64,000 nucleotides of DNA, taken from sequence record MZ561532; one strand, written 5' to 3'. Below, in pieces: positions 19,220 to 58,858 of this stretch (within the stretch, counting starts at the first letter, position 1; each line of letters starts with the position of its first letter). The notes below the pieces were generated by a model that made no database searches, had not been told where the DNA came from, and saw only the letters and a list, made by a program, of their open reading frames with translations. Source of the DNA: Shigella phage PSD9. Made by a program: the position numbers and the translations under genes.

Positions 19220-19220
<1 letters not shown>
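19023..19220 (-). CDS. hypothetical protein
   Basis: 65-aa ORF immediately downstream of pseT. Confidence 0.4.
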
Positions 19221-20420
<1,200 letters not shown>

Positions 20421-22229: not shown

Positions 22230-22258
22230 ATACTAACACGTCATGAGGAGATGTAAAC
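22230..22258 (-). promoter_or_regulatory. T4-type early promoter (GTTTAC-N17-TAGTAT)
   Basis: -35 overlaps rnlA stop codon; GAGGAG SD before the downstream gene. Confidence 0.45.
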
Positions 22259-23406
22259 TACTCTACCACAATTTCTTTCAAATATTTTTCAGGGATTTGG
22301 GCCTTATGATTTTTCAAGAACACAGAGTTAATCTGGTCCATGACCGTATCATAATTAATACCGCCTACGTACGCCTGCATAAGAATAGAGAACAACCCTG
22401 GGAAGTCCTTAAGGATTAGCTGTCCAGTAACGGCATAGTCTTTACGGTCGCGACCTTTGAGTTGAGAGTAAGCTGCTTCTAACAAGGCTAATGATTGTTC
22501 TAGGTAATCTAAATGGATGCGTTCAAAGGCATCGATTTTCTCGATAGCAAAGGAATCTGTACTGAACAGACCACGAAGGTCATCAGTTCCACCAGCCACT
22601 ACAACTTCAAACAAACGTTCGTTGTTGTTAATGGAATCTTTGGTATGATGCAGTGCACTGTACCAGGCGGTTTTGAGTTTAAAGAACGTACCATCTTTCA
22701 GTACAAAGATGAAACCTTCAATGCCTTCTTGCTTACGGATGTTTTCTACGAAATCGCCCTCAGCGAGCTCATAGCTTTCAACCAAATGCTTACGCAGTGC
22801 GCCGTCCTTAAACAATTCCGCATACGGAATATATTCACCCGTTTCATTATTACGAACGTTCAACAGGATGAGGTTCGTTTCTTGGTAAGCCAGCACAATA
22901 CGGTTAGTAGGTGCAACATATTCAAGGTTGCAGGTATACCCGGCTTTGGTGATTTCTTCTAGACGTGCGGCAAAAGCCTCGTTCTCAGGTAGACGAAGGA
23001 AACGTAAAGAATCATGCACCATTGATGAATGGATAGAGCCTTTAGATTTAACAGAAAGATATTGTCGGTCCATGAATGTAGAAATCAGAGAACCGTCTTC
23101 CTTAGCCATTACGAGGTCAATATTTTCCGGCGACAAATCCAGACCGATGGTCATAGGGTTTTCGTCGAGGTTAAAGAACTTTTGCATAGGACGAGCAGCA
23201 ATACGTACTGGACCTTTCTCGTCCATTTCAAACATAATGCCTCGGCACTCTAGTGCGCCGTCTTCCAACCAATCACTGTATGATGCGTAGTTATAACTAA
23301 AGATGCGATAGTTGACTCCTAGAGCACTCTGAAAGTCTTTAAAGAAGAACTTAGATTTAGTCGAGTTTTTAACCAGGGCCATCAAGTTATCATATAATTC
23401 AATCAT
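22258..23406 (-). CDS. rnlA: RNA ligase 1
   Basis: Strong resemblance to T4 Rnl1 including the adenylation lysine in KEDGSL and RIFSYNYASYSDW; 382 aa. Confidence 0.85.
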   Translation of the reverse strand: MIELYDNLMALVKNSTKSKFFFKDFQSALGVNYRIFSYNYASYSDWLEDGALECRGIMFEMDEKGPVRIAARPMQKFFNLDENPMTIGLDLSPENIDLVMAKEDGSLISTFMDRQYLSVKSKGSIHSSMVHDSLRFLRLPENEAFAARLEEITKAGYTCNLEYVAPTNRIVLAYQETNLILLNVRNNETGEYIPYAELFKDGALRKHLVESYELAEGDFVENIRKQEGIEGFIFVLKDGTFFKLKTAWYSALHHTKDSINNNERLFEVVVAGGTDDLRGLFSTDSFAIEKIDAFERIHLDYLEQSLALLEAAYSQLKGRDRKDYAVTGQLILKDFPGLFSILMQAYVGGINYDTVMDQINSVFLKNHKAQIPEKYLKEIVVE

Positions 23407-39725: not shown

Positions 39726-42700
39726 ATGGCTACTTTAAAGCAAATCCAATTTAAAAGAAGTAAAGTAGCCGGTGTACGTCCGACACCGGCCCAGTTGGCT
39801 GAAGGTGAACTGGCTATTAACTTAAAGGACCGATTACTTTTTACTAAAGACGATACTGGAGCGATTATCGACCTTGGCTTTGCTAAAGGTGGTAATATTG
39901 ACGGTAATGTTATTCATAACGGTAACTACAACCAGACTGGCGATTACACCCTAAATGGTACCTTTACCCAAACAGGTGATTTTAATTTAACCGGTATTGC
40001 TCGTGTAACTCGTGACATTATTGCCGCTGGCCAGATAATGACCGAAGGTGGCGAGCTTATTTCTAAGAGTGCATCGACGTCCCATTTGAGATTTTTTGAC
40101 GGCGCATCCCGCGAACGTGGCATTATCTTTTCGCCAAATAATGCTGGAGCGACCACTCAGGTAGTTAATATTCGCGTACAAGATTATGCGACAAGTGGCG
40201 AAAGCACTTATGCATTTTCAGGCAATGGACAATTTACTTCACCTGAAGTATCAGCATTGAAATCTATTTCGTCTCCACAAATTCTGACCGATAAAGTTAT
40301 TACAAACGGGAAGAAGACAGGCGATTATGATATCTATTCATTGGCAAATAATAATTCTAACACAGATAAAAATAATTTACGCGTTGTGCGTACTGATCCA
40401 GCGGCCGCAATGCTCCATGAAATTTGTGAAAATAACGGTATCAGTTGGTATTCCGGTTCAACCCCTACTGATTATATGATATCTTTTGCTTATTCCGGTG
40501 GTTTTCAAGCTGGACATTCGATTGCAGTAGGTATGGAATCAGGGCCTATGACCTATTCAACCTTAGGTAAAGGTTCTATTGTTTTAGGTGATAATGACAC
40601 TGGGCTAAAATGGCATCAGGATGGATATTATTTCAGCGTTAATAACGGCACAAGAACTTTCCTGTACGGCCCTGCAGAAACCACCAGTCTTAGAAAAATG
40701 GTTATGGGTTATTCTGTAAACGGTACCGATTTAACTACTCCTCCAACTGAAAACTATGCTTTGGCTACTGTTGTTACTTACCATGATAATAACGCATTTG
40801 GTGATGGTCAAACTCTTTTAGGTTATTACCAAGGTGGCAATTATCACCACTATTTCCGCGGTAAAGGTACTACAAACGTTAACACCGCTGGTGGTTTGTT
40901 AGTTACTCCTGGTAATATTGATGTTGTTGGTGGTTCTGTTAATATCGATGGTCGTAATAATGCTTCTACGCTGATGTTTAGAGGTAACACGACCGGAAGT
41001 AGTTCAGTTGATAATATGACTATCGCCGTTTGGGGTAATACCTTTACTAATGTTGATGGCGACCGTAAAAACGTAATGGAAATATCTGATGCCACTAGCT
41101 GGATTCAATATTATCAACGACTGTCTTCAGGTGCTATTCAAAGCCATTTAAATGGAACTTTGGGTGTAAACGAAAGTATAAATGTCGGCCAGGAAGTTAA
41201 CGTCTCCGGCACTATTGCTGGTAATGCGGTCAATGCTCTTAGAATTTGGAACGACGATTACGCCGCTATTTTCCGCCGTTCAGAAAACAGTCTTCATATT
41301 ATTCCTACCGCCTTTGGCGAAGGTAAAACTGGTGATATTGGTCCACTTCGCCCGTTTCGTATGGACCTTGATACAGGTAAAGTAAGTATTCCTAATATGG
41401 ATACTACTAATTTGACTATGAACCCAAATGGCTATATTAAATTTGCTGGTCATGGCTCAGGCGCTGGTGGTTATGATATTCAGTATGCACAAGCAGCTCC
41501 TGTTTTCCAGGAAATCGATGATGATGCTGTAAGTAAATATTATCCTATTGTTAAACAGAAGTTTTTAAACAGTAAAGCTGTTTGGTCTTTAGGTACTGAA
41601 ATTAATTCCGGGGATTTTGTTTTACACCATATGAAAGAAGATGGAACACAATCTCATCTCTCAAGATTTAATGCTGACGGTACAGTTAACTTCCCGGATA
41701 GCGTTAAAGTCGGTGGCGATAAAGCTACTATCGGCAAAGATGGTAACATCTGGTCTGATATCTGGAAAACGTTTACTTCTGCCGGTGACGTAACCAATCT
41801 TCTTGGTGCTGTCTATAGCCGGGTTTCTAAAGAAGGCGATACGTTGACAGGCCGCTTAACTCTTAAAACCAACTCAGACGCCGTTGTTATTGATTATCCA
41901 GCAGATGAAGCAGGTTATGTTAAGGGTAAAAAAGGTGGTGTTAATAACTGGTATGTTGGTAATGGCGGTGCTGATAATAACTTATCGTTTTATAGTTTCC
42001 AAACTAATTCAGGCGTTAATATTCATAATAGTGGAGAAATTGGTTTAGCTCCTCAAGGGTCGGATACTTTTTATTTTAATAGGGACCGACTTTATATAAA
42101 GGGTGCACAATGGACAGCTCATCAATCTGGTGCATGGGGTGACCAATGGGGTTTAGAAGCGCCTGTATTTGTGGATTTTGGCAATGTCAGTAATGACTGT
42201 TATTATCCAATTATCAAAGGAAGATCTGGTATTACTAACGAAGGATACATATCGGGTGTAGATTTTGGTATGCGACGCATTACTAATACCTGGGCACAAG
42301 GTATTATTCGTGTAGGTAACCAGGAAAATGGTCAAGACCCACAAGCTATATATGAATTCCACCATAATGGGGTTTTTTATGCTCCAAGCTTACTTAAGAG
42401 CGGCAGAGTATCGGCCGGTGGTGGTGACCCGGCATGGACTGGGCCATGTATTGTTATTGGTGATAATGATACTGGTTTAGTCCATGGCGGTGATGGTCGT
42501 ATTAACATGGTTGCCAATGGTGTGCATATTGCATCTTGGTCTGACTCTTACCATATCCATGAAGGTCTTTGGGATACCAATGGTGCTTTGTGGACTGAAC
42601 ACGGAAGAGCTATTATTTCTTTTGGCCATTTAGTCCAACAAAACGATAGCTATTCAACATTTGTTCGTGACGTTTATGTTCGTTCTGATATTCGTGTTAA

Positions 42701-43019
42701 AAAAGACCTTGTTAAATTTGAAAATGCTTCACAGACACTTTCAAAAATTAACGGTTACACTTATATGCAGAAACGTGGCCTGGATGAAGAAGGTAATCAG
42801 AAATGGGAACCTAATGCCGGTTTAATTGCTCAAGAAGTTCAAGCTATTTTACCGGAATTAGTTGAAGGTGACCCTGATGGTGAAGCTTTACTTCGTTTGA
42901 ACTATAACGGTGTAATTGGTTTAAATACGGCTGCAATCAATGAGCACACTGCAGAAATAGCAGAATTGAAATCAGAGATTGAAGAACTTAAAGCACTAAT
43001 TAAATCATTGTTAAAATAA
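39726..43019 (+). CDS. 37: long tail fibre distal subunit
   Basis: 1097 aa; N-terminus [13 protein letters not shown]..., repeated GDNDTGL motifs, coiled-coil C-terminal tail. Confidence 0.85.
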
Positions 43020-43024
43020 TAAGA

Positions 43025-43038
43025 GGGGCTTCGGCCCC
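43025..43038 (+). other. intercistronic hairpin GGGGC-UUCG-GCCCC between genes 37 and 38
   Basis: No U-tract; followed directly by GGAGG SD of gene 38. Confidence 0.45.
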
Positions 43039-43050
43039 TTGGAGGTTTAT

Positions 43051-43845
43051 ATGGCAGTAGTAGGACCATGGGTTGGAGGGTCTGCAGTAGCTAATACAGG
43101 ACAAAACTGGATGGGTGGCGCTGCCCAGCGATTGAGAATGGGTATTCCGTTTTGGATGAGTAATATGAACGGTCGGTCTGTTGAAGTAATTCATACTTTA
43201 GGTGGGGACCATAACTTTAATGGGCAATGGTTCCGCGACCGTTGCTTTGAAGCCGGTAGTGCGCCTATTGTGTTTAATCTTACAGGTACATTAGTATCTT
43301 ATACCCGTGATGTTCCATTGTTCTTTATGTATGGGGATACTCCAAACGAATATGTTCAATTGAATATTGGTGGTGGGGTTCATATATGGGGCCGAGGTGG
43401 TCAAGGTGGATGGACCCACTCGGGTGGCGATGGCAACGGCCAATGGGGTGGAACTTGTATTGTAAATGATATTGGCGGTCGTTTAAGAATTAATAATGGT
43501 GGGGTTATCTGTGGCGGTGGCGGTGGCGGTGGCGGCATTGCGTGGCGTCCTTACTCAGGTGCTAACTGGCAAGATATCGGTGGTGGTGGTGGACGTCCAT
43601 TTGGTCCTGATGGCGGTGGTAGATTCTCCGGTGGTGGTGCTTCTTATGAAAGCCCTGGCGGTGGATACGATTTGGATAGAGCCCACTCAGGACATGGCGG
43701 TGATGCTGGTGCCTCAGGCCAGAACGCATGGTCTTATGGTGGTAAAGTTCTTAAAGTTGGGGCTGGGGGCGGCGCAGGAGCTGCTGTTGCTGGAAGTTCT
43801 CCTACTTGGCATAATACAGGTGTTATCTACGGTTCCTGGCTATAG
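43051..43845 (+). CDS. 38: tail fibre adhesin gp38, T2-type with glycine-rich motifs
   Basis: 264 aa from ATG (track starts at upstream TTG); [16 protein letters not shown] and [12 protein letters not shown] tracts typical of T2/T6-type adhesins. Confidence 0.75.
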
Positions 43846-43856
43846 TGCATAAGCTC

Positions 43857-43864
43857 TATAAATA
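43857..43864 (+). promoter_or_regulatory. late promoter TATAAATA for holin t
   Basis: Exact TATAAATA 19 nt upstream of AAAGGAG SD and t ATG. Confidence 0.65.
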
Positions 43865-43882
43865 TCTTTAAAGGAGAAAAGT

Positions 43883-44536
43883 ATGGAACCAAAAGTAGGA
43901 TTTTCATTATCAGACCTACTTTTTGGACTTCTTGATAGAATTTTTAAAGATACTTCTTCCGGGAAAGTAGTTTTTTCCCGGGTCCTAGTCGTGATATTAT
44001 TGTTCTTTATGGCATTGGTTTGGTATAAAGGCGAGTATATTCTAAACTTTTATAAAGAGACTACTTATGCCTCTTATACTGAAATGATTAGACAAGACCA
44101 GGACAATAGATTTAAAATTGCGGCTATCGAGCAGCTCCGAATAGTGCATTCTTCTTCAGGCGCAGACTTCACAGCAATATATTCTTTTAGACCAACCAAC
44201 ATGAATTATTTTGTGGATATGGTGGCTTACGAGGGTAAATTACCGGAAACGGTAGACGCAAAAAACACGGGAGGGTTTCCAATTGACAAAACGTCAGTAG
44301 AATATATGGCGGGAGTTAACGGGAACTATTTTGAATCAAGTACCGAAACTGTATTCCTTCCTACAAAGAAGAAAACACAATTCACGTATATGTTTTCATG
44401 CCCGTTTTTTAATTTGGATAACGTCTACGCCGGCTCGATATCGTTGTACTGGTATGATATCAAACCGGATTTAGGATTTCCTAGACTTTCGTCTATGTGC
44501 GGTCAGGCTGGGAGGACATTAGGTCGAACACGTTAG
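43883..44536 (+). CDS. t: holin
   Basis: 217 aa; close match to T4 holin T (SDLLFGLLDR..., single TM, large periplasmic domain). Confidence 0.85.
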   Translation: MEPKVGFSLSDLLFGLLDRIFKDTSSGKVVFSRVLVVILLFFMALVWYKGEYILNFYKETTYASYTEMIRQDQDNRFKIAAIEQLRIVHSSSGADFTAIYSFRPTNMNYFVDMVAYEGKLPETVDAKNTGGFPIDKTSVEYMAGVNGNYFESSTETVFLPTKKKTQFTYMFSCPFFNLDNVYAGSISLYWYDIKPDLGFPRLSSMCGQAGRTLGRTR

Positions 44537-44808
44537 AAATTGGAGGTATACATCATTAAGTAACGGTGTATATCTTCATACCCTTCATTAAATTGCTCAA
44601 TAAGAGTGTCACGTTCATCTTCAGTTAATGACTTAAATAATTTGTTATAAGACAAACCGTTAAGTTCCTTTCCGTGTTCATTACGAATACCTAACTCATT
44701 CAAAAAGGCAATAAACTCATCACGACGTTGCATGATGTCTTCACAATCCGTTTTAATCAAAATGGAAACAATAGTAGCAATTTCGGAAACAATTTCAATT
44801 TTAGTCAT
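44533..44808 (-). CDS. asiA: anti-sigma70 factor AsiA
   Basis: 91 aa; strong similarity to T4 AsiA (...IAFLNELG...EQFNEGYEDIHRYLMMYT...). Confidence 0.8.
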   Translation of the reverse strand: MTKIEIVSEIATIVSILIKTDCEDIMQRRDEFIAFLNELGIRNEHGKELNGLSYNKLFKSLTEDERDTLIEQFNEGYEDIHRYLMMYTSNF

Positions 44809-44849
44809 AATATTCTCTTCAATTCAGTACGTCATTATCTGATAGGGCT

Positions 44850-44878
44850 ATACTAACATATCCTTAGGGATTGTAAAC
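44850..44878 (-). promoter_or_regulatory. T4-type early promoter (GTTTAC-N17-TAGTAT) for asiA
   Basis: Conserved hexamers upstream of asiA. Confidence 0.45.
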
Positions 44879-45022
44879 ATGTTTTTCGTTCTTTTTAACA
44901 TATTCCTGATACATCTCTTCTATTGGTTCCTGGAACTTAAAATCAGCTCCCAGGAATTCCTCAAAGCACTCCTGCTCACGTGTACGCATGCCTGTTACGG
45001 TATTCTCTAAGTTATGACTCAT
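44864..45022 (-). CDS. possible small acidic protein, 52 aa (not in ORF track)
   Basis: ATG preceded by AAGGGTAAAGG; hand translation MSHNLENTVTGMRTREQECFEEFLGADFKFQEPIEEMYQEYVKKNEKHVYNP. Confidence 0.3.
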   Translation of the reverse strand: MSHNLENTVTGMRTREQECFEEFLGADFKFQEPIEEMYQEYVKKNEKHVYNP

Positions 45023-45111
45023 AGCCTTTACCCTTATGTTTCTGTTTACGTTTAGACTCTTTAAGGTTTTTCTTTTTGTCCTTGTGGACCGAAGCCTTAT
45101 TGAAATCGTGC

Positions 45112-45393
45112 TTAGCTACCAGATTGTTCACGTAATTTCCTTAATTGATATTCAAGAGAGCTGATAATTTCTTTATTAGTTGCAATATACATATCACGTA
45201 GGAACGGCTTCAACCCTTCCATATTACCATGGATTGTCTTAGAACTAATATTCTTTATATATTCGTGGTCTAAGGCATCCCAAGCCGGTTGGTTGACATA
45301 AGTTCCCCAGTTGTCTTCCACCATGACATTAAGACGTTTAACATGATTAATATGGGCTTCGATTGCATCAATCTGGAGTTGTTTAAGATTCAT
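45112..45393 (-). CDS. arn: anti-restriction nuclease Arn-like
   Basis: 93 aa (T4 Arn 92 aa), between asiA and motA as in T4; sequence not independently verified. Confidence 0.45.
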   Translation of the reverse strand: MNLKQLQIDAIEAHINHVKRLNVMVEDNWGTYVNQPAWDALDHEYIKNISSKTIHGNMEGLKPFLRDMYIATNKEIISSLEYQLRKLREQSGS

Positions 45394-45881
45394 TAGTAAA
45401 GGTCCTCAGAGTAAAGTTCTTTTTCACTGCCACCACGTTCAATACGAACTTGATTAGCATAAGTCGCAATAATCATTGCTTCTTCGCGAGTCCAATAGTT
45501 TGAATATTGGTCAATAAATCCTTGGTCATCACCACAAACATGGTCTGATACAAGTTTATCACTTACCTGGTCGAGAACTTCAGCCATATCTTTAGAATAA
45601 TGACGAGCACCAGGAATAACCAGAGTCCCACCGTCTTTTAACTTAAAGCGGTTGGCAGCACACACAATCCTGCGCTGATATTTTTCATTGTTGTTCCAAT
45701 AGGCAATCTGCCAACATATTTCAGGAACCTCTTCTAAAACATCCTCTTCTGTATATTCGGTGTAATCACCATATGCCCGTAATTTAGCTGCTAGACTTTC
45801 AGGCGTCTCACGAGAAAGAGCTTTATCTAATAAAGCCATACGGTCTTTAAAGGATAATGCTTTACCTTTTAATAGATTCAT
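45393..45881 (-). CDS. hypothetical protein
   Basis: 162-aa ORF, stop/start coupled to arn. Confidence 0.45.
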
Positions 45882-46216
45882 TTGAAAATCACCTTATGGC
45901 CGTTATCTTTAGCAAATTCTTGAATTTTGGTGGCAGTTTCAATTAAATCACCTTTATAATAGGATGATAATTTAATATTAACTGTTTGGCCCTCGCCATA
46001 CGAAGTTATATTTACCTTTTCAATAAAAATAATCTCAAGAAATCGTAATAACTGCATACCAAATTCAAGATAAACGTTATCAATCTGGAGATCGAGTTGG
46101 TAAATTTTCTTAATACCGCTTACCAAAGCTACACGCTCGTCCCAATCATTACGTTGTTCTTCAATCAATTTAAGGGAATGACCTTCACCGTCCCAGTTAA
46201 GTTCCATCGGAATCAT
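45878..46216 (-). CDS. hypothetical protein
   Basis: Start set at ATG (MIPMELN...) with AAGGA SD and ATGA overlap. Confidence 0.4.
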
Positions 46217-46542
46217 TTGAACCATCCTTTAATACGCTGCCATAAAGATTTCTGTTGAGCTTTATTAACACCAATTGAACGGATAACCGGTTGTGATTCT
46301 TGGTATTCTTTGTAGTCCGCTTTATAGACTTCATAAGCCGCTGGGACAAAGGTGCTGATTGCCGCCATAAAGTTTTTGCGAATTCCCATAGAAGCTTCAG
46401 AACCACCACGGATGATTAAGTATTTACCTGCTTTAATCTTAACAATAGTGCCGAGATAAGCACCGTGGTACCAAATGTCCCAACCTTCTTGAGTAGGTTC
46501 TGCACAACGACGAAGTTCATTAACAATATTAAGCTTGTTCAT
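46213..46542 (-). CDS. hypothetical protein
   Basis: 109-aa basic ORF directly downstream of motA. Confidence 0.45.
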   Translation of the reverse strand: MNKLNIVNELRRCAEPTQEGWDIWYHGAYLGTIVKIKAGKYLIIRGGSEASMGIRKNFMAAISTFVPAAYEVYKADYKEYQESQPVIRSIGVNKAQQKSLWQRIKGWFK

Positions 46543-46560
46543 AATAATTTCCTCAGTCAG

Positions 46561-47193
46561 TTAAATTGCGTTGGTTACGGTTTTGATAACTTCAGATGAT
46601 ACGTTTTGGAAGTCGATATAAGTATTCTTACCACCAGTCTTAATCTTAACATCAAGATTCAAGGAAGTAAACACTTGTTTTTCTTTATCAGTCATATTAT
46701 AACCGAAGATGCGCATCATTCCGTCACGACGGACTTCAATTTGACGAATACCATTGGTACGTTTAGCGAATCGAACTTCAAGGTTGCTACGGTTTTCAGC
46801 AATTTCACGAATCTCGATACGGTCTTCTAATAAAGCTTTAACTTCATCAGCCAGTGTTACCATTTCAGGAGTAACACCACGTGAACTACGCGTTTTACGT
46901 TTTTCCAACATCTCTGGAGCATTTTCAGAAGCGAACAAGTCAGCAGCTTTTTGAACTAGGTCCATTGCTTCACCCGTAGCCACTAAACCATCACCGGATT
47001 TTTCGATGAATCCTTTCTTAATCAATACACCGATGTTAGAGTTAACTACCGCAGCACTAAATTGCTCACTCAGGGCTTCACGGACTTCGCCTGAAGTGAT
47101 GAAGTTATGCTTGATGATATGTACTAAGATCGAAGCAGTTTTTTCATTCAGGACGTCTTCAGAAGCTTTGATGATATAAGTAATTTTAGACAT
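46561..47193 (-). CDS. motA: middle-transcription activator MotA
   Basis: Start set at MSKITYIIKAS matching T4 MotA; 210 aa; track start is an upstream GTG. Confidence 0.85.
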   Translation of the reverse strand: MSKITYIIKASEDVLNEKTASILVHIIKHNFITSGEVREALSEQFSAAVVNSNIGVLIKKGFIEKSGDGLVATGEAMDLVQKAADLFASENAPEMLEKRKTRSSRGVTPEMVTLADEVKALLEDRIEIREIAENRSNLEVRFAKRTNGIRQIEVRRDGMMRIFGYNMTDKEKQVFTSLNLDVKIKTGGKNTYIDFQNVSSEVIKTVTNAI

Positions 47194-47231
47194 TTTGTAT
47201 CTCCATTTCACTCTGTTGTTTTGATAGGTCT

Positions 47232-47260
47232 ATAGTATCATGTTTAAAGCAGATGTAAAC
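47232..47260 (-). promoter_or_regulatory. T4-type early promoter (GTTTAC-N17-TACTAT) for motA
   Basis: Conserved cassette upstream of motA. Confidence 0.5.
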
Positions 47261-47284
47261 TCTTTTTGCACTAAACCCAAAAAA

Positions 47285-47300
47285 GGAACCCGAAGGTTCC
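47285..47300 (-). terminator. intrinsic terminator (GGAACC-UUCG-GGUUCC + U6)
   Basis: Follows stop of the 34-aa ORF; UUUUUUGGG on minus RNA. Confidence 0.55.
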
Positions 47301-47405
47301 TTACTTTTTAAAGTTGGCTGCTATTAAACCTATAGCTAAGCCTGTTGCCAGGCCTAGGATAACAGCAAAGATACAGAGTAACAAGAACTCGACTCCAAGG
47401 CTCAT
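47301..47405 (-). CDS. small membrane peptide, 34 aa (not in ORF track)
   Basis: ATG overlaps gene 52 stop (ATGA); hand translation MSLGVEFLLLCIFAVILGLATGLAIGLIAANFKK; terminator follows. Confidence 0.35.
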   Translation of the reverse strand: MSLGVEFLLLCIFAVILGLATGLAIGLIAANFKK

Positions 47406-48781
47406 AGAGCCTCCAAATCTTTAACATACTCAGTTACAACATCAGTGGTTTTCCAATATTGATGCTCTTCTTTCTTAGCCTTGGCTTCCAAAGCCAGTTT
47501 CTTGGCTTCATCAGAAGTGATATGGAAAATGTTCATGGCCACTAGTTTATCAGCGTATTCGCCATAGACTTTATTACTAGCCAATTCTTCGGTTAAAACC
47601 TTGCGAGTCTTACCTTGGATAACCACTACACCATCAATAACATCTTTGATGAATGTGGCTTTAGCTAATGCCAGTTTGAAAGCTTCTTCGGTTTCGATGA
47701 TTTTACCATCAATACGTTTCTGTACAAAGGTCTTACGGACCTCAACGAAATCACGAATCAGTTCAACTGCATCTTCGTAAACCTTAAGTTTACCTTTCTC
47801 ATTAATGACGGTCAGGTTTTGTGAACGACGTTCGATTAACCCGAAGTCCTTCATGATTTTTTCATGCTTCTTGTTTTCATCAGTAGGCAATTCGTATTCT
47901 TTACGAATCTTAACCTTGAAGCCAAAACCGTTCTCGTCACAGTCATCATCATATGTGATGTACCCTTTGTCTTCCAGAGGGTCTAATACCTTAGCCACAT
48001 ATGTTTCACGGTCATATTTGTATGGGATTTCCGTGATATGCATTTGGGTTCGAGATGTGAACTTATACGTTCCACGAATCTCATAACTACCAGGTTCAAT
48101 CTCAACAACTTCACCACGGAATTCAGGATAAGCCACTTTGGGTTTGGTTACTCGTTTTTCCTGAAGAACTTGCAGTACAGCTTTCTTAACAGAATCAAAA
48201 CTATGAGGAAGAATATTAGTTGCATAACCAGTTGCAATACCGGAAACGCCATTAAGAAGAACAGTAGGAATAATAGGCAGATAAAAAGCCGGTGGCTTAT
48301 GTTCAACATCCGCATGAACCGGAGCATATTCTGTGTCCTTATAAACTTTTGCAAAGTTACTTCCAATACGAGCAAAAATATAACGAGAGGCTGCAGCCTT
48401 TTGAACCAATCGAGAACCGAAGTTACCTTGACCGTCTAACAATGGATAGTTGTTGTTCCATGTGTTAGCCATCAAAGCCCCTGCTTCCTGAGCAGAACCT
48501 TCACCGTGGTGATATCCGAGGTCGGCTACACCACCAGCGATAGAAGCCAGTTTGTGGAATTTTTCTTTATTACCACGAGCCATATCAAGACAACGAGCCA
48601 CTACAAAACGTTGTACAGGTTTAAAGCCATCAATCATATTTGGAATGGCTCGGTTTTCGACAGTATACATTGCATAAGCCAATGCTTCGTTGTCGATAAT
48701 ACTTTTTAAGTCACGACGAGTAAAAGTATCATCGTAAACATCTAAAGCCTGTTTAAAAAGGGTATCAATTACATCAGCCAT
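47402..48781 (-). CDS. 52: DNA topoisomerase II medium subunit
   Basis: 459 aa GyrA-like breakage-reunion domain (...GYATNILPH...); T4 gp52 about 442 aa. Confidence 0.85.
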   Translation of the reverse strand: MADVIDTLFKQALDVYDDTFTRRDLKSIIDNEALAYAMYTVENRAIPNMIDGFKPVQRFVVARCLDMARGNKEKFHKLASIAGGVADLGYHHGEGSAQEAGALMANTWNNNYPLLDGQGNFGSRLVQKAAASRYIFARIGSNFAKVYKDTEYAPVHADVEHKPPAFYLPIIPTVLLNGVSGIATGYATNILPHSFDSVKKAVLQVLQEKRVTKPKVAYPEFRGEVVEIEPGSYEIRGTYKFTSRTQMHITEIPYKYDRETYVAKVLDPLEDKGYITYDDDCDENGFGFKVKIRKEYELPTDENKKHEKIMKDFGLIERRSQNLTVINEKGKLKVYEDAVELIRDFVEVRKTFVQKRIDGKIIETEEAFKLALAKATFIKDVIDGVVVIQGKTRKVLTEELASNKVYGEYADKLVAMNIFHITSDEAKKLALEAKAKKEEHQYWKTTDVVTEYVKDLEAL

Positions 48782-48785
48782 AATT

Positions 48786-48926
48786 TTACCATACTAGTGA
48801 ATGAATAGCCATAATAACATCGGAAATAAAAAGCACAACTTGGATAAGTCCGAACATTACTCCGTAATACAGCGCTACTAATAATGCAGCAAGGGCTAAA
48901 GAGTAGCCCAAGATTTTATTAATCAT
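48786..48926 (-). CDS. possible small membrane peptide, 46 aa
   Basis: Internal ATG (MINKILGYSLALAALLVALYYGVMF...) overlapping stop of upstream ORF; track start is TTG. Confidence 0.3.
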   Translation of the reverse strand: MINKILGYSLALAALLVALYYGVMFGLIQVVLFISDVIMAIHSLVW

Positions 48927-49080
48927 TTTTAATCGTCTTAAGTAAACCGACAAAAGTAGAAAGAACCCAACCAATAAGCAGAAAACTTAAGAATATCGGA
49001 CCAGGGGCCCACACACCTAAAAAGAAGCAAACTGAACAGACTATAGCCATAATAAGTTCAATAAAAACTAGGATAACCAT
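48919..49080 (-). CDS. small two-TM membrane protein, 53 aa (T4 ac position; not in ORF track)
   Basis: GAGGAAAAT SD then ATG; hand translation MVILVFIELIMAIVCSVCFFLGVWAPGPIFLSFLLIGWVLSTFVGLLKTIKND. Confidence 0.4.
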   Translation of the reverse strand: MVILVFIELIMAIVCSVCFFLGVWAPGPIFLSFLLIGWVLSTFVGLLKTIKND

Positions 49081-49090
49081 ATTTTCCTCA

Positions 49091-49168
49091 TTAGCGTCCG
49101 AAGACGCCTTTAGTTTTAAGATTGTTACTATAGAACTGCATCACATGCTCGTTATGGAAATTACTCAT
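49091..49168 (-). CDS. stp: Stp peptide (activator of the host Prr anticodon-nuclease system), 25 aa
   Basis: Hand translation [25 protein letters not shown], near-identical to T4 Stp as recalled; ATG overlaps ndd stop (TAATG). Confidence 0.75.
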
Positions 49169-49617
49169 TAGTAAGCCTGCAGGATGAATTTAAAGTTATC
49201 AGCCAACATACGGTTCATTTCTTCCAGTGTCTGGAGGTCGGAACTATGATTACGAGTGAAAGCCATTGCAATTTGACCCTTACCAAAACCTGTAGTCAGG
49301 GGTTTCATCTTAGAAGCCGGTACATAAAGAACTTCATACACAACACCGTTCACTGCCATAGTGCGAGCTGATTGAGAACGTTTCTTACGAATGTTAGCCA
49401 CGATACCGTCGAGCCCTTGGGCCGAACGTTGATTACCGACATAAAAACGAGCCGCTACGACACGAGAATCAGCGCCGCCTTTAACAAAGAAGTAGAAGCC
49501 TGGCTGAGCAGAGATTTCTTTAGAAGGTTTACCATTTTGGTATTCACCGTTCTTAACATAAGCAACAGTAGTAGCACCAGCAGACAGAACGTTACGGCGA
49601 GTCATATAAGTATTCAT
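49168..49617 (-). CDS. ndd: nucleoid disruption protein Ndd
   Basis: 149 aa; close match to T4 Ndd (...RFYVGNQRS...[13 protein letters not shown]...[12 protein letters not shown]). Confidence 0.8.
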
Positions 49618-49666
49618 ATCAATTTCCTCAGTAGATTAATGTTTTGTTATCCGGTCAACGAGAACC

Positions 49667-49695
49667 ATTATAACATGATTCTCGAGGTTGTAAAC
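49667..49695 (-). promoter_or_regulatory. T4-type early promoter (GTTTAC-N17-TATAAT) for ndd
   Basis: Consensus hexamers; GAGGAAATTG SD precedes ndd. Confidence 0.5.
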
Positions 49696-50039
49696 TATTT
49701 TTGTAGCTGTTCTAAAATAAATCCGCTGGTGTAAAGGCTTGCATTATACAGGCGGTCAAGAGACAACGAATCCAATCCATAAGCTTCGCGAATTGCATTG
49801 ATAACACTTTCATAACTTGTATAATAAACGTCACGATAATCGCGGTCCATAGTCATGCGGAACTTAATAAATTTGTAGAAACCAGTTTCAGGGTCCTGAT
49901 AGAATGCAAATTCTGCAGACGCTAAATTTTTAAGGTTAACAGCTTTTGAGTCACCCGAATAACTTAAATCAAATGTTTCTGACATGCTAATCTGTTTAAA
50001 GAACATAATGTTGCGATTACCAAAAAATAATTTAGACAT
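49695..50039 (-). CDS. hypothetical protein
   Basis: Start set at internal ATG (MSKLFFG...) with AAGGAA SD. Confidence 0.4.
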   Translation of the reverse strand: MSKLFFGNRNIMFFKQISMSETFDLSYSGDSKAVNLKNLASAEFAFYQDPETGFYKFIKFRMTMDRDYRDVYYTSYESVINAIREAYGLDSLSLDRLYNASLYTSGFILEQLQK

Positions 50040-50049
50040 AATATTTTCC

Positions 50050-50262
50050 TTATTCAGCGTCAACAGAAATAGCCATCAGTTCATCAACAGTAAGGCATTG
50101 CACACTAGGGCCTACACAAAAACGCTTAGTTGAATCATAAAGGTCTGTAGCATTAACAGGTTGTAATTCAGTCCCAACTTGCAAAGGAGAAATACGAATT
50201 AATTGTTGACCGTTATGTAATACAAAGCTCTCACCAACTGCAACATCTTTAAAAAGTTTCAT
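50050..50262 (-). CDS. hypothetical protein
   Basis: Start set at internal ATG (MKLFKDV...) with GAGGAA SD. Confidence 0.4.
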   Translation of the reverse strand: MKLFKDVAVGESFVLHNGQQLIRISPLQVGTELQPVNATDLYDSTKRFCVGPSVQCLTVDELMAISVDAE

Positions 50263-50272
50263 AATATTTTCC

Positions 50273-50383
50273 TCAGAAGTTAAAGAATACACGTACATGG
50301 TCAATCATAAAAACGATTGGGAAAATGCTCAATACCAAAAATAACACAAACATGTTCCAAATTGCTTTAAGTAAGTTTTTCAT
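50273..50383 (-). CDS. possible small membrane peptide, 36 aa (not in ORF track)
   Basis: GGAG SD then ATG; hand translation MKNLLKAIWNMFVLFLVLSIFPIVFMIDHVRVFFNF. Confidence 0.25.
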   Translation of the reverse strand: MKNLLKAIWNMFVLFLVLSIFPIVFMIDHVRVFFNF

Positions 50384-50409
50384 AATCATCTCCATTAGTT
50401 GATAGGTCT

Positions 50410-50438
50410 ATAATATCATGATTAATGGAGATGTATAC
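50410..50438 (-). promoter_or_regulatory. early promoter variant (GTATAC-N17-TATTAT)
   Basis: Conserved -10/leader cassette with -35 GTATAC. Confidence 0.35.
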
Positions 50439-50528
50439 TGATTTATGCCAATTTCCACAACAATAAACTAAAACATACGCAAATCACTGGGATACAGGCC
50501 ATCCAAATAAGGCACCACATTTTGCTAC

Positions 50529-50795
50529 TCAAAACACCACCTCTTTTATCTCAATTAATCCCCTGTGCAATGCAGTACGAAGGTCATAAAGAATATCTAT
50601 GCCGTCAACATTATCCAGTTTTCCATCAATAAGCTTTTCTAAATCTTCCTTGGATGCGATTAAGGGGCGGAGAAATTTACATTCAGAAAGAGATAACTCT
50701 GTAGTAACATCATCACCTTCACCTGATGCATCATACATAGCGGCAACAACCATACCTGTAACTTTGTGTTTAGCGTAATATAATTTGATATCCAT
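50529..50795 (-). CDS. hypothetical protein
   Basis: Start set at internal ATG (MDIKLYY...) with GAGGAG SD; track start is GTG inside the promoter. Confidence 0.4.
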   Translation of the reverse strand: MDIKLYYAKHKVTGMVVAAMYDASGEGDDVTTELSLSECKFLRPLIASKEDLEKLIDGKLDNVDGIDILYDLRTALHRGLIEIKEVVF

Positions 50796-50823
50796 TTTGT
50801 TCTCCTCATTAGTTGATAGGAAG

Positions 50824-50853
50824 ATAGTAACACCATCCATGGCGTATGTAAAC
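50824..50853 (-). promoter_or_regulatory. T4-type early promoter (GTTTAC-N18-TACTAT)
   Basis: Conserved hexamers upstream of the 50529-50795 ORF. Confidence 0.4.
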
Positions 50854-50868
50854 ACCTATTTTAAAAAA

Positions 50869-51426
50869 TTATAAGGCGAGATACCAGCCGTTGTAATTGC
50901 TCTTACGGACTAGCTTTGTGATGGCTTCTCTGTCACCAGAGAACTTAGGAGTGAACAGGACATCGCCTGCCTCATTTACCGAAGTGTCGAATATAATTAT
51001 ACAATCTGCAACTTTATGATTCAAGAGCGGGCCCAGGTTAATCCCTGTTCCATAAGGGAAGTCACCGGAGTATCCTGTAGTGCAGGAAATCCACTTAGAA
51101 TCCGACTGATGGGTCTTGACCTCTACGCGTAGTCCACAGTACATAGGATGAGCTAAAACATCCCATGCATAGGTATAAGGGTCGTCATGGTCTTCCAGAC
51201 CACTGTTAACATATCCTTTCAACCAATCAGCAACCATGTACTCGGCATACGTTGCAATGACACACCGAGTCAATACTTCTTTCTTATCTTGGGACGGGTC
51301 TTGGCTTAAGGAATACAATACGGTATCCTTAATCTTGACCTTCATTTCGCCTGTTAAATCAGATGTCTTCAGGGTAAATGTCGGCATCGCTGCCAATCGG
51401 AGTAGTCCCGGGTTCGTCTTCACCAT
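50869..51426 (-). CDS. hypothetical protein; positional candidate for endonuclease IV (denB)
   Basis: 185 aa from ATG with GAGG SD (T4 DenB 185 aa); adjacent to rIIB side as in T4; sequence not recognised; overlaps next ORF by 68 nt. Confidence 0.3.
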   Translation of the reverse strand: MVKTNPGLLRLAAMPTFTLKTSDLTGEMKVKIKDTVLYSLSQDPSQDKKEVLTRCVIATYAEYMVADWLKGYVNSGLEDHDDPYTYAWDVLAHPMYCGLRVEVKTHQSDSKWISCTTGYSGDFPYGTGINLGPLLNHKVADCIIIFDTSVNEAGDVLFTPKFSGDREAITKLVRKSNYNGWYLAL

Positions 51427-51658
51427 AAATGCCTCGAATATGAAGTTCACCGTAATAAATTCGGTCGTCGGGTTCTAAAGTATCAGAATCTGCTAAAGGA
51501 AATTCGCCTTCGACCACCTCATCGCATTCTAGAAAAGCGTAATGAACATCACCCGGGTGTTTAACGAGCTTAGCACAATAAACAGTACCTGCTTTATGGA
51601 ATCCACGCAAATTAGAAATCTTGATACCACGTTCACCGACATTCAGGTAATTAATCAT
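51359..51658 (-). CDS. hypothetical acidic protein
   Basis: Start set at ATG (MINYLNV...) 1 nt after upstream stop; track start is GTG. Confidence 0.35.
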   Translation of the reverse strand: MINYLNVGERGIKISNLRGFHKAGTVYCAKLVKHPGDVHYAFLECDEVVEGEFPLADSDTLEPDDRIYYGELHIRGIYGEDEPGTTPIGSDADIYPEDI

Positions 51659-51659
51659 T

Positions 51660-51857
51660 TTACTCACCGAAATAAGAAATACGAACCTCTAAACAATGAG
51701 CATAAGCGCCCATCGCATCCAGTTGTGCAATCAGTAACCCTTGTTGACGGATATCAAGAGTTTCAAAAACACCACCTTCAATAAAGGTTTCTAGTGCGTT
51801 AATTTTAAGAACCAACTGGTCGTATTCTTCAACTACACGTGCTTGGTAACCTAACAT
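51660..51857 (-). CDS. hypothetical protein
   Basis: 65-aa ORF with GAGGAA SD just after hairpin 51870-51885. Confidence 0.4.
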   Translation of the reverse strand: MLGYQARVVEEYDQLVLKINALETFIEGGVFETLDIRQQGLLIAQLDAMGAYAHCLEVRISYFGE

Positions 51858-51869
51858 AATTCCTCATTA

Positions 51870-51885
51870 GGAGGCCGAAGCCTCC
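51870..51885 (-). other. intercistronic RNA hairpin GGAGGC-UUCG-GCCUCC (second copy)
   Basis: Identical 16-nt sequence to 14436-14451; between rIIB stop and the SD of the next gene. Confidence 0.5.
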
Positions 51886-51894
51886 ATTATTGAT

Positions 51895-52863
51895 TTAGTA
51901 TTTGTATTCGTTTGCGAACTGTTCGGTGACGTCTTCTAGAACTTCATAATAACATACACGCATTTTAGCATCACCGTAATCGACCGGAATACTAACAACA
52001 TCACGTGGGTTAACTTTACATGAAACCACTTTACAGCTTGAGTTACCAAAATGACCGATATAACTACGAGAGCAAACGTGCAGACCACTTGAACAGGTTA
52101 CTTCATCATCGTCATTTACACGAGAACGAGGCATTTTAACCGGTTTGCCTGGTGAGTTATCAAACGTACCGGTACGGCAGTCGGTGTAATCGGAGTTAAC
52201 CACCTTCCACGTAATAAAGTGACCATCTTCAGTAATTTTGATGTCGTTTGCCACCAAGAAGTCGAACAAACGTTGTACAGCTTTTTCGCTTGGGTTTTCT
52301 AACAGGTTCTCAAGGAACGGCAGGTAGAATTCAAAGTCTTCACCATTTTCCATTGAAGTAATAATACGGTCAATCAATCCTGAACGCAATTCAATGCCTT
52401 GGTAAACCAGACGTCCACCTTCAATACGAACGTTACCTTTGACGAAGGCCTTAACGGCTTCTTTAATGGAAATCAGTTTAATCGCGTCATCGAAACGAGA
52501 TTCTTTAAGAGCCTGTACGATGGCATCAAAATGTTTGTTCTTATTAGTGGTGTTCCATACTGTACGACCTTCAGTGATGGATACGAATTTAGAACTCGCG
52601 TTCCAGATAATTTCAGGGCGAGAGCCGCCAATAGTAACTTCAACGGGAACTTCACGAGGCTCGTTAGGAACTGTTACTTTGATATTTCCGGTAATAACTA
52701 CCTGGGCCCGTCCAGCTCCTTTAGCATTTTTCAGGACTTTACGGATTGTATCAACTGATACACTGTACCAGTCAGCCAACTCATTCTGAGTATAATTACC
52801 AGAAATATATAACTTAACGATTTCAACTTGCTCAGCGGAGGTCAAACACTTAATATTGTACAT
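51895..52863 (-). CDS. rIIB: rapid-lysis protein rIIB
   Basis: 322 aa (T4 rIIB 312 aa) immediately downstream of the rIIA-like gene. Confidence 0.7.
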   Translation of the reverse strand: MYNIKCLTSAEQVEIVKLYISGNYTQNELADWYSVSVDTIRKVLKNAKGAGRAQVVITGNIKVTVPNEPREVPVEVTIGGSRPEIIWNASSKFVSITEGRTVWNTTNKNKHFDAIVQALKESRFDDAIKLISIKEAVKAFVKGNVRIEGGRLVYQGIELRSGLIDRIITSMENGEDFEFYLPFLENLLENPSEKAVQRLFDFLVANDIKITEDGHFITWKVVNSDYTDCRTGTFDNSPGKPVKMPRSRVNDDDEVTCSSGLHVCSRSYIGHFGNSSCKVVSCKVNPRDVVSIPVDYGDAKMRVCYYEVLEDVTEQFANEYKY

Positions 52864-52877
52864 AATATTTCCTTAGA

Positions 52878-55088
52878 TTAAGCCGCTTCCACGGCTTTCA
52901 TGAATTTAACAATTTGAGCTACAGAAGCCTCGGTAATGGATGTTCCACGACGATACATGTAGTCCGAAACTAAATGGTAATCAGATTCAAACTGTACAGT
53001 CATTTTATCATTGTTGCTTGAAGCATTATCAGTCAACTTAAAAAAAGTATTGTTACAAATTTTCTTGATAACGGAAAGCTTATCATCAGTGATATAACCA
53101 TGGAAATTCATATAACGGAATATATCATAGAAATTACTCAGACGAGTATATGCTTCAGTTACCGGCTTATCACTGAAATACTTGGTCATGAAATTAAGCT
53201 GAGGGAACTTAGCAATGATTTCAAGGTAATACCGAGCTCGAGTATTGCTACCAAGGTAGTCATCAACATCTACCGCGTCTAAGGCTTCAGCATAGGCTTC
53301 TAATGTAGCTTCCATCAAGCATTCGCACTGGCCTAACTTTTTAATCTTTTTGGCAATCTGAGGGCGAATGATATGGAATTCGGTAGCACCAATCAAATTA
53401 GCCATACGACACATGGTAGTGGTATTGATGTCAAAGATACCATAAGCTTCATCCATTCCCATGATATCAGAACGACTGCCAAACAGAACATAACCTGTAA
53501 TTTCTTCTGCTTCGGCAGCAGTCAAATACATGGTCTCTTGTTGCCAGCGCCCGTCTTTAATGAACCAACGATAAGCACTCGGTGTTTTAGGACGCGGTTC
53601 TGATGAACGGACAGTAACCGGAATCCATGGCTTAACAATTTTATTCAGTTCAGAGACTTTATAAAAATGAATTGTGTCACCTTTAAAAAGTTCTTTAACC
53701 TTTTCAAGTTGTTGCATTTGCAACATTGAATTTGGGTCGACAAAAATAAGGTCAGTTCCGTATTTAGGAATATTGTTCTCTTTAACAATTTTCTTAGCCG
53801 AAGCACTGTTGTCCATTGCCAGAGCCCAAAGACCTCGAACTAATGGCACACGACCTTTTTCATCATCATAAACAACATGGATTTCTTTCTTATTAATGCC
53901 TAATAAATTACTAAGTCCTGCTACCGAAGAAGTATTACCACTTGACTTAATTCGTTTCAAACGTGGGTCTGAAACGACTTCGTAAACCACACCTAAATTA
54001 ATAAGGTCGTTTTGAAGGGTATAACGCTGGTATAATTTCTCATATGTCAATTTTTCTGTAGTAAACAGGCTAGTTCCACCTTTTTTGGTAAGATAGTCAC
54101 GAGCACTGTAACCAAGGTTAGAAAGGTCACGATAAACATGGCGTGGATTATCAGATTCAACCCATTCCTGTGTATCGTTTTTAAAGACCACTGCATCCAG
54201 TGCTTCGATACGGGTTGCAATATTTTCCATCGTACGTTTATCAAGAGACAACACTTCACGAGAAGGAGCAATATCCAGTGAACCCATAGGGAACTTAATA
54301 TAAACTACATCATGGCGAGTACGCATCCACGTGCCTTTATTATAGGCGGAATCCAATGGATAAACAATACCACCATAAACTGCATAAAGTCCTGAACGTT
54401 CGAAGCTGCCATAATTTGTAGTGGTTACAGGATGGTAATCGTCAAATTCAGGGAAATAATCAACTTCAACACCGTCTACATCACCAAGACCAATGAAAGG
54501 CCGCATGATATAACGAACTTCAGTTTCAAACTTACGGAAATCTTCTTCATCAACAGGAACCGTGATTTCGATACCTGTTTTATCACCTGGCTGCATAGGT
54601 TCTACGAAAGTAGGTTTAATCTGCGGGCCATCACCATCCATATATGCTACATAACCGCGAACTTCGCCATTGTGCCATGAGGTAATATTAAACGTTTCGG
54701 TATAACTGAACGGAGATTTTGAACCAAGGCCAAAGCCGCCGATGAAATCGTTAGAAGCGGTTTTGGACGACGCGAAATAAGAGTTATACAAACCTGTTTC
54801 GTTTTCATCACCACGAATTTGGAAATCACTCATACCCGGCCCGAAGTCACGGCATACAAAGCGAGGGTCCAGTTTACCAGGAACCTGTACTTTCCAACGT
54901 TCTTTATTACCATTTAGAATATGGGCATCAATCATGTTAGTAATCAGTTCACGAACTACGGCACGTACTTTATTACTATAAAGGTCTGATGACAAAATTT
55001 TAAAGACCTTAGGCGATGCCTGAATAGTAAAGCCTGTGGACTTAGCACCATTACCAATGATTTGTTCTTTTTCGGTTTCAATAATCAT
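52878..55088 (-). CDS. rIIA: rapid-lysis protein rIIA (GHKL ATPase-like N-terminal domain)
   Basis: 736 aa (T4 rIIA 725 aa); N-terminal ATPase-like motifs ELITNMIDA, RDFGPGMS, GGFGLGSKSPF. Confidence 0.8.
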   Translation of the reverse strand: MIIETEKEQIIGNGAKSTGFTIQASPKVFKILSSDLYSNKVRAVVRELITNMIDAHILNGNKERWKVQVPGKLDPRFVCRDFGPGMSDFQIRGDENETGLYNSYFASSKTASNDFIGGFGLGSKSPFSYTETFNITSWHNGEVRGYVAYMDGDGPQIKPTFVEPMQPGDKTGIEITVPVDEEDFRKFETEVRYIMRPFIGLGDVDGVEVDYFPEFDDYHPVTTTNYGSFERSGLYAVYGGIVYPLDSAYNKGTWMRTRHDVVYIKFPMGSLDIAPSREVLSLDKRTMENIATRIEALDAVVFKNDTQEWVESDNPRHVYRDLSNLGYSARDYLTKKGGTSLFTTEKLTYEKLYQRYTLQNDLINLGVVYEVVSDPRLKRIKSSGNTSSVAGLSNLLGINKKEIHVVYDDEKGRVPLVRGLWALAMDNSASAKKIVKENNIPKYGTDLIFVDPNSMLQMQQLEKVKELFKGDTIHFYKVSELNKIVKPWIPVTVRSSEPRPKTPSAYRWFIKDGRWQQETMYLTAAEAEEITGYVLFGSRSDIMGMDEAYGIFDINTTTMCRMANLIGATEFHIIRPQIAKKIKKLGQCECLMEATLEAYAEALDAVDVDDYLGSNTRARYYLEIIAKFPQLNFMTKYFSDKPVTEAYTRLSNFYDIFRYMNFHGYITDDKLSVIKKICNNTFFKLTDNASSNNDKMTVQFESDYHLVSDYMYRRGTSITEASVAQIVKFMKAVEAA

Positions 55089-55095
55089 ATTTTTC

Positions 55096-55299
55096 TCAAT
55101 TCAGGTTACGTTTAAAAATGTCTGCCACTTCAAGGAGCTCGTCCTTAGTAGCGATGTCGTTGAGTATTTTATATCTGATTTCTTTAAAGCGTTCTTTAAA
55201 ATCCTCAGCCGCATTGATATCAAAAAATCGTTGGATTAACCGGAATTCTTTATGGACAGCTTTATCGAACAAATCAATATTCACTTTAAAGTTTGTCAT
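55096..55299 (-). CDS. hypothetical protein
   Basis: 67-aa ORF between rIIA and 39. Confidence 0.4.
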   Translation of the reverse strand: MTNFKVNIDLFDKAVHKEFRLIQRFFDINAAEDFKERFKEIRYKILNDIATKDELLEVADIFKRNLN

Positions 55300-55609
55300 T
55301 TTTAACTACCTCATGTTGAACATATTCTCTGGTAGAACCTAGTTCAGCCAGAATTCTTCTCATAGAACCCATTGTACTTTTGTGCTCTCTGTGGCGATAC
55401 ATTATCTCTAAAACCTTTTCCTGGACCACAGGAGAGAGCGCCTGGTTATCTTTAATCTTTAAGGCAATAGATTTTACAGCCTTAAGGTATTCAAGTCCCT
55501 TACCGCTTGTAGTCACTACTCCTTCATCTTTACAGTTACGAATGGCCGTTTCCATAAAGGATAAAGCTAGATTGTCAGTGTTCACTATACTGTTATCTTG
55601 CATAATCAT
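55286..55609 (-). CDS. hypothetical protein
   Basis: Start set at internal ATG (MIMQDNS...) with GAGGTGA SD. Confidence 0.4.
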   Translation of the reverse strand: MIMQDNSIVNTDNLALSFMETAIRNCKDEGVVTTSGKGLEYLKAVKSIALKIKDNQALSPVVQEKVLEIMYRHREHKSTMGSMRRILAELGSTREYVQHEVVKNDKL

Positions 55610-55664
55610 ATTCTCACCTCTAGATAATCCTATCATAACCACAGGTCTTTGTAAACCCCGAAAA

Positions 55665-55678
55665 GGGCCCGAAGGCCC
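55665..55678 (-). terminator. intrinsic terminator (GGGCC-UUCG-GGCCC + UUUU)
   Basis: Follows stop of the 53-aa ORF at 55687. Confidence 0.5.
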
Positions 55679-55686
55679 TTATTAGT

Positions 55687-55848
55687 TTAGTTACTTGAAT
55701 CGACCTTATAGACTTGTCCGCGGGTTTGGTAAACTTCGCCGTCCCATGTCTCGACTGTAATAGTCACGTATTCTGCAAACTGAGGTCTAGTATCAGTCCA
55801 GATATAACCGTATTCACCGGTGACGAGCGTAACCCAGTACTTTCTCAT
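55687..55848 (-). CDS. small protein, 53 aa (not in ORF track)
   Basis: AAGGAG SD then ATG; hand translation MRKYWVTLVTGEYGYIWTDTRPQFAEYVTITVETWDGEVYQTRGQVYKVDSSN; terminator follows. Confidence 0.35.
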   Translation of the reverse strand: MRKYWVTLVTGEYGYIWTDTRPQFAEYVTITVETWDGEVYQTRGQVYKVDSSN

Positions 55849-55892
55849 AAAGTCTCCTTTTGTATGGCACCAATTAGTACCATACGTATTTA

Positions 55893-57710: not shown

Positions 57711-57734
57711 GTTATTTCCTCATGTAGTAGGAGA

Positions 57735-57759
57735 ATATTATCCCATTTCACTTAAAGCA
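57735..57759 (-). promoter_or_regulatory. MotA-dependent middle promoter candidate (TGCTTTA-N12-TAATAT) for gene 39
   Basis: MotA-box-like TGCTTTA 12 nt upstream of -10 TAATAT; same spacing as the gene 31 and 32 candidates. Confidence 0.4.
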
Positions 57760-57762
57760 TAA

Positions 57763-58037: not shown

Positions 58038-58043
58038 AATTTC

Positions 58044-58220: not shown

Positions 58221-58221
58221 A

Positions 58222-58828: not shown

Positions 58829-58858
58829 TTTATTTTCCTCTCATTTGTTGATAGGGTA

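Follow-up and report, generated by a model that had tools for sequence, protein, structure and literature searches.

A T4 stp orthologue with an arginine-to-serine change at residue 14 in the Dhakavirus-like Shigella phage PSD9

The Stp peptide, the PrrC nuclease and the repair enzymes PseT and RnlA make up a classic example in which a host defence detects the phage's own anti-defence factor. Work on T4 has established that the release of PrrC involves GTP hydrolysis, with dTTP as a co-activator, and that the nuclease cleaves tRNA-Lys 5' of the wobble base (PMC3014915, PMC12707154). T4 genetics and work with a synthetic peptide identified the peptide itself as the active agent (PMC3014915). 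According to this review, which summarises Penner et al. 1995, loss-of-function suppressors cluster at Stp residues 4-14, abolishing nuclease activation, and across T4 relatives there is next to no variation in the N-terminal 18 residues (PMC3014915). The same residues are, by this account, generally needed for both EcoprrI inhibition and nuclease activation, and deletion of the last 8 stp codons lowers activity only moderately (PMC3014915). Literature searches found neither a structure of a Stp complex nor a residue-level mutant table.

This trigger-and-repair gene set is textbook T4 biology, and stp is also already known in Dhakavirus (Straboviridae, Tevenvirinae), where it is annotated in phage JS10. 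The T4 gene (T4p267, NP_049878) resembles that of Shigella phage PSD9 in its position after ndd, its TAATG start, its UUCG hairpin and the downstream gene's GAGG ribosome-binding site. The two products differ in length, with 26 residues in T4 and 25 in PSD9, since a stop codon replaces the terminal Gln in all Dhakavirus copies examined. They also differ at residue 14, which is Arg in T4 and Ser in PSD9. The 78-nt JS10 gene (EpJS10_0256, YP_002922605.1), annotated as stp with the product 'activator of host PrrC lysyl-tRNA endonuclease', matches PSD9 in length (25 aa), genus and gene order, and differs from it by R14S. Escherichia phages WG01 (Dhakavirus wg01) and PSD2002 encode the JS10-type peptide in a gene that is present but unannotated. 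Another T4-like phage with this gene set adds nothing new, as stp is already annotated in the genus, and R14S is the only non-routine element of the PSD9 set.

The DNA analysed here, referred to as the window, is a stretch of 64,000 nucleotides from PSD9 (MZ561532). The genes at and around stp are as follows.

49168..49617, minus strand: ndd, nucleoid disruption protein, 149 aa; Pfam PF06591 (Phage_T4_Ndd), E = 1.1e-68; 62.9% amino acid identity to T4 Ndd.
49091..49168, minus strand: stp, 25 codons plus TAA, from the ORF list and its translation.
48919..49080, minus strand: 53-aa predicted membrane ORF at the T4 ac position, from the ORF list; PHROG 9347 (unknown function), E = 1.5e-26.
48786..48926, minus strand: gene 52.1, 46-aa membrane protein (DUF7396); PF24129, E = 1.2e-21; 95.7% identical to T4 gp52.1.
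47402..48781, minus strand: gene 52, topoisomerase II medium subunit, from the ORF list; 78% identical to T4 gp52.

A first-pass annotation of this window had described a 25-codon ORF, missing from the ORF track, whose ATG overlaps the ndd stop and whose product matches T4 Stp almost perfectly. Each of these statements agrees with the present analysis. The ORF occupies 49091..49168 on the minus strand, which the first-pass annotation had left unspecified, and its ATG (49168-49166) begins on base 49168, the last base of the ndd TAA, forming the sequence TAATG. Only with the minimum length reduced to 20 aa does it enter the list, and the length threshold of the ORF list therefore accounts for its absence from the track. 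Alignment with T4 was run, and the peptide is identical at 24 of 25 positions to the Stp of T4, as it is in pairwise comparison to those of JS10, WG01 and PSD2002. In a Pfam profile search, the peptide scores 68.3 bits (E = 3.3e-19) against PF08133, the 'Anticodon nuclease activator family', for which the gathering score is 25; the match spans residues 1-25 of the 26-position profile. It also matches PHROG 6763, 'activator of host PrrC lysyl-tRNA endonuclease', with 67.7 bits, and NCBIfam contains no model matching it. An ORF of 25 codons would be trivial by itself, and it is the Pfam, PHROG and T4 matches that mark this one as something other than a chance ORF.

Relative to T4 Stp (NC_000866, T4p267), the sole differences are R14S and the missing terminal Gln. 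The remaining in-frame differences are synonymous third-base changes (GAG/GAA, CAT/CAC), as would be expected if the peptide were under selection. That the ORF corresponds to T4 stp by orthology, and that its genome is a WG01/JS10-like Dhakavirus, is in our view close to certain; no observation speaks against the identity of the gene.

The gene order ndd-stp-(ac position)-52.1-52 is common to PSD9, T4 and JS10, and gene 52 is annotated as such in both JS10 and T4. Nucleotide identity to T4 is 91% for stp, 89% for 52.1, 74% for gene 52, 67% for ndd and 53% for the ORF at the ac position. In comparison with T4, the region 48786-49617 is patchy, with stp and 52.1 standing out as islands of conservation. 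The 53-aa ORF was considered as a candidate for ac and rejected: a forced global alignment with T4 Ac gives only 30% identity, and Pfam has no match for it. The 1 kb around stp is 99% identical to PSD2002 and WG01 and 94% identical to JS10. Over positions 40000-60000, identity to the best deposited relatives is only about 95%; such a level across 20 kb indicates that the Dhakavirus lineage to which PSD9 belongs is itself absent from the phage collection searched.

Annotation of this region in deposited genomes is uneven. As stp has fewer than 30 codons, it is missed in many of them, including WG01 and PSD2002, and comparative counts of anti-restriction genes consequently under-report it. In phages vB_Eco_F25 (OP870144.1) and vB_Eco_F26 (OP870145.1), ndd is labelled 'naphthalene 1,2-dioxygenase', an evident annotation error. 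The stp gene of F25 has an altered C-terminus (GVRRRQ).

By analogy with T4, stp would be transcribed and translated in PSD9, its peptide would be active and the repair pathway would operate. Stp would bind a host type IC restriction-modification complex (EcoprrI, EcoR124I) and inhibit DNA restriction. In prr+ hosts, this binding would unmask the associated PrrC nuclease, which would cut tRNA-Lys in the anticodon loop. PseT would then heal the tRNA ends, and RnlA would reseal them. The two repair genes are found elsewhere in the window.

19220..20128, minus strand: pseT, polynucleotide 5'-kinase/3'-phosphatase, 302 aa; uninterrupted ORF; Pfam HAD_PNKP and AAA_33.
22258..23406, minus strand: rnlA (gene 63), RNA ligase 1, 382 aa; uninterrupted ORF; Pfam RNA_lig_T4_1 and T4_Rnl1_C.

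The hallmarks of T4-type PseT are the kinase P-loop GxxGxGKS and the phosphatase motif DxDxT. The PSD9 enzyme has both, in the two-domain architecture of kinase and phosphatase, with AAA_33 at residues 6-149 and HAD_PNKP at residues 160-302. Its residues 2-302 align with T4 Pnk (PDB 1LTQ; E = 1e-189), and 270 of 301 positions are identical. The kinase residues K15, S16, D35, R38 and R126 are conserved, as are the phosphatase residues D165, D167, R176, R213, D254, D277 and D278; we take those checked to be the essential ones in T4 Pnk mutagenesis.

RnlA is more distant from its T4 counterpart, at 50% identity compared with 90% for PseT. Its residues 1-375 align with T4 Rnl1 (PDB 2C5U; E = 3.7e-114), with 187 of 374 positions identical, and it scores 459.6 bits against the NCBIfam equivalog TIGR02308, where the cut-off is 242.25. 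With 382 residues to the 374 of the T4 enzyme, it has 8 extra, and the C-terminal 7 lie past the end of the alignment. The adenylylation lysine K99 is conserved, mapping to K102, and the Rnl1-specific C-terminal domain is present. Also conserved are the other nucleotidyltransferase motif residues checked, R54, K75, F77, G102, K119, E159, E227, G228, K240 and K242, a set based on Rnl1 mutagenesis.

The first-pass annotation had also described the polynucleotide kinase and RNA ligase 1 as intact, and the whole trigger-and-repair module as conserved. The enzymes are indeed full length and keep all the catalytic residues checked. The claim about the module is upheld for the three intact reading frames and the enzyme residues. 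It calls for qualification in two respects, as it overlooked R14S and as the genes are not physically grouped. As in T4, rnlA and pseT are 26-30 kb away from stp, and the word 'module' therefore denotes a functional grouping, not a physical one. A search of the 64,000-nt window for tRNA-Lys, or another tRNA able to bypass PrrC, returned no tRNA genes and no Rfam matches.

The change at residue 14 was defined by base-by-base comparison with PSD2002 and WG01.

49127..49129, minus strand: stp codon 14, AGT (Ser).

It results from a single-base change at plus-strand position 49129, which is T in PSD9 and G in its relatives. Codon 14 is CGT or CGC, both encoding Arg, in every relative examined, and is CGT in T4, JS10, WG01 and PSD2002. 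Within the N-terminal 18 residues, PSD9 Stp is identical to T4 Stp at 17, with R14S as the exception. The change sits at the edge of the suppressor cluster at residues 4-14 and inside the 18-residue N-terminal active region.

The Ser14 peptide appears to be rare. Among 50,697 phage records searched with tblastn, it had no exact match, its best being 24/25, in 438 records. The Arg14 25-mer had 439 exact matches in the same records, and the lower identity bands drop by one step when the Ser14 query is compared with the Arg14 query. In IMG/VR, the exact 26-mer with AGT was found in no contig and the 26-mer with CGT in 6. The exact Ser14 peptide is likewise absent from a collection of 15 billion proteins, in which both the 25-aa and the 26-aa Arg14 forms occur.

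A degenerate DNA pattern scan for MQFY-X-NNLK, where X is residue 14, recovered 38 Stp-like genes from IMG/VR and metagenomes. Residue 14 is Arg in 37 of these and Leu in one. The exception, encoded by CTT on metagenome contig Ga0079226_10302727 (L039, positions ~875-901), is the only other non-Arg14 Stp to come from the scan. Its context is Dhakavirus-like, with ndd upstream, and its close relative L070 has Arg14. Arg14 is also kept in the more distant homologues of siphoviruses Sf12, Stevie, Sf11, seszw and Henu7, and the one exception is a weak homologue of Webervirus type, in which Trp aligns with this residue. By sequence comparison, R14S replaces a residue of the predicted active N-terminal core that hardly varies, and the replacement is not conservative. 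The change does not touch the homology with Stp. It follows that 'intact' holds for the stp reading frame and is unproven for its function, and the strength of PSD9 Stp, both as inhibitor and as trigger, is uncertain.

This rarity bears on the possibility that the allele is attenuated or inactive. Replacing Arg with Ser at residue 14 removes a charge, and R14S might weaken binding to the type IC complex, making both the PrrC trigger and anti-restriction inefficient. We hold this tentatively, as a prospect a little short of even. Other natural variants of the critical region can be cited in its favour, namely R14L on contig L039, the codon-11 stop of Shigella phage sb4 and H5Y of phage Bas41, as can the absence of any exact Ser14 match from the three collections and the retention of Arg14 in environmental sequences and distant siphoviruses.

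The laboratory suppressors of T4, obtained by reversion of pseT or rnlA mutants on prr+ E. coli CTr5X, offer a parallel. As the review describes them, they are single missense changes in residues 4-14, as is R14S. Unlike them, R14S comes from a natural isolate that has both repair genes. Possibly, though we would not quite favour it, the PSD9 allele is the natural counterpart of these suppressors, in which case the trigger half of the system would not be conserved in function. Several points weigh against attenuation. The likeness to the suppressors is one of residue range, and the Trp of the Webervirus-type homologue means that homologues can do without Arg here. As pseT and rnlA are intact, no selective reason to discard the trigger is apparent, and R14S may instead have no effect, represent slightly deleterious drift or stem from a sequencing error.

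It seems unlikely, if still worth stating, that R14S alters the function of Stp at a contact residue that hardly varies, whether as a wild escape allele, which would not trigger PrrC and would have lost anti-restriction, or as a variant suited to a different type IC complex. If this were true, R14S, the R14L contig, the sb4 codon-11 stop and Bas41 H5Y would together suggest that prr-like systems select against Stp. Stp activity would then be under counter-selection in nature even where the repair enzymes are present. Regardless of how R14S acts, it and other natural variants of the active region provide test cases for the Stp residues that contact the type IC complex. Such variants could also show whether the trigger is counter-selected in the wild.

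In principle, the T at 49129 could have arisen in assembly or sequencing, or come from a minority variant, and the phage could really have Arg14. It is a single-base difference from all relatives, in a gene otherwise identical to that of WG01 and PSD2002. However, the closest relatives differ from PSD9 by 8 or 9 further substitutions dispersed through the surrounding kilobase. Given these substitutions and the identity of about 95% over 20 kb, real divergence is to be expected at 49129, and we consider an error very improbable.

Returning to stp as a presumably expressed orthologue of the T4 gene, the candidate signals around it comprise two promoter-like sites and one hairpin.

49667..49694, minus strand: sigma-70-type promoter-like site, TTTACA-16 nt-TATAAT, with an extended -10 TG; 11/12 matches in a consensus scan.
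49798-49825, plus strand: second promoter-like site, TTGATA-16 nt-TATAAT; 11/12 matches.
49094..49107, minus strand: C(UUCG)G tetraloop hairpin, GCGUC-UUCG-GACGC, within stp codons 21-25 (G-V-F-G-R); read from the sequence.

The minus-strand site lies about 50 nt upstream of ndd and, judging by this position, is likely to be the early promoter of ndd-stp. The two genes are probably co-transcribed from it. The two promoter-like sites diverge, are about 100 bp apart and lie in or beside the gap upstream of ndd; the plus-strand site has no obvious gene to serve. No strong ribosome-binding site is present upstream of stp, and the TAATG overlap is conserved together with its flanks in T4, JS10 and PSD9. 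This combination makes it likely that stp is translated by coupling, in which ribosomes terminating on ndd at TAATG would probably start on stp.

The tetraloop hairpin at the end of stp precedes, by 4 nt, the GAGG ribosome-binding site that serves the following gene. It is kept in both the minimum-energy and the centroid folds and is also found by a stem-loop scan. The same UUCG hairpin occurs in T4 and JS10, the T4 version having 6 bp. As an intrinsic terminator it was rejected, as the stem is followed on the minus strand by TAATGAGGAAAATATG, with no T run. The terminator-like call made by the scan at 49094-49107 refers to the plus strand, where the tail is T-rich, opposite to stp. The hairpin may explain why the GVFGR C-terminus, although functionally dispensable, is conserved in the T4-like phages examined. 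It might stabilise the mRNA or modulate translation of the downstream gene.

That the conservation of stp as a whole reflects an RNA or DNA element (such as the CUUCGG hairpin or signals of the downstream gene) instead of the peptide is scarcely credible: nucleotide conservation is far above that of the neighbouring genes and a stable hairpin does sit beside the downstream ribosome-binding site, but the hairpin extends over codons 21-25 only, a dispensable part that varies between homologues, and not over the invariant N-terminal 18 codons; the stp region as a whole folds no more stably than shuffled sequence (z = 0.28); siphovirus homologues keep HNEHVMQ[FW]YR despite a different C-terminus and nucleotide sequence; and in T4 the peptide was active by genetics and in synthetic form (PMC3014915).

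Other natural alleles of stp were encountered in the course of these comparisons. The stp of Shigella phage sb4 (PQ666542.1, record positions 1989-2063) is interrupted in frame at codon 11, which makes it a null allele occurring in nature unless the stop is an error of sequencing. In Bas41 (FriedrichZschokke), R25S accompanies H5Y. IME281-like Dhakaviruses have two copies of stp, about 290 nt apart (IMGVR_UViG_2974734865_000001, 6163-6560; IMGVR_UViG_641509422_000001). One member of the pair is an intact, divergent stp, and the other is a JS10-type remnant without a start codon, an arrangement which suggests that one type of stp was replaced by another via insertion.

Stp homologues are also widespread in T1-like and other enterobacterial siphoviruses (Drexlerviridae, Cedarrivervirus, Skatevirus), where most are unannotated. 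They keep the core HNEHVMQ[FW]YR, and their C-termini are unrelated. From these sequences, stp has evidently moved between unrelated phage groups. The siphovirus loci are L031 (Sf12), L032 (Stevie), L074 (Sf11), L075 (seszw) and L076 (Henu7), and further homologues are carried by siphovirus-sized IMG/VR contigs (L018/L020-L022).
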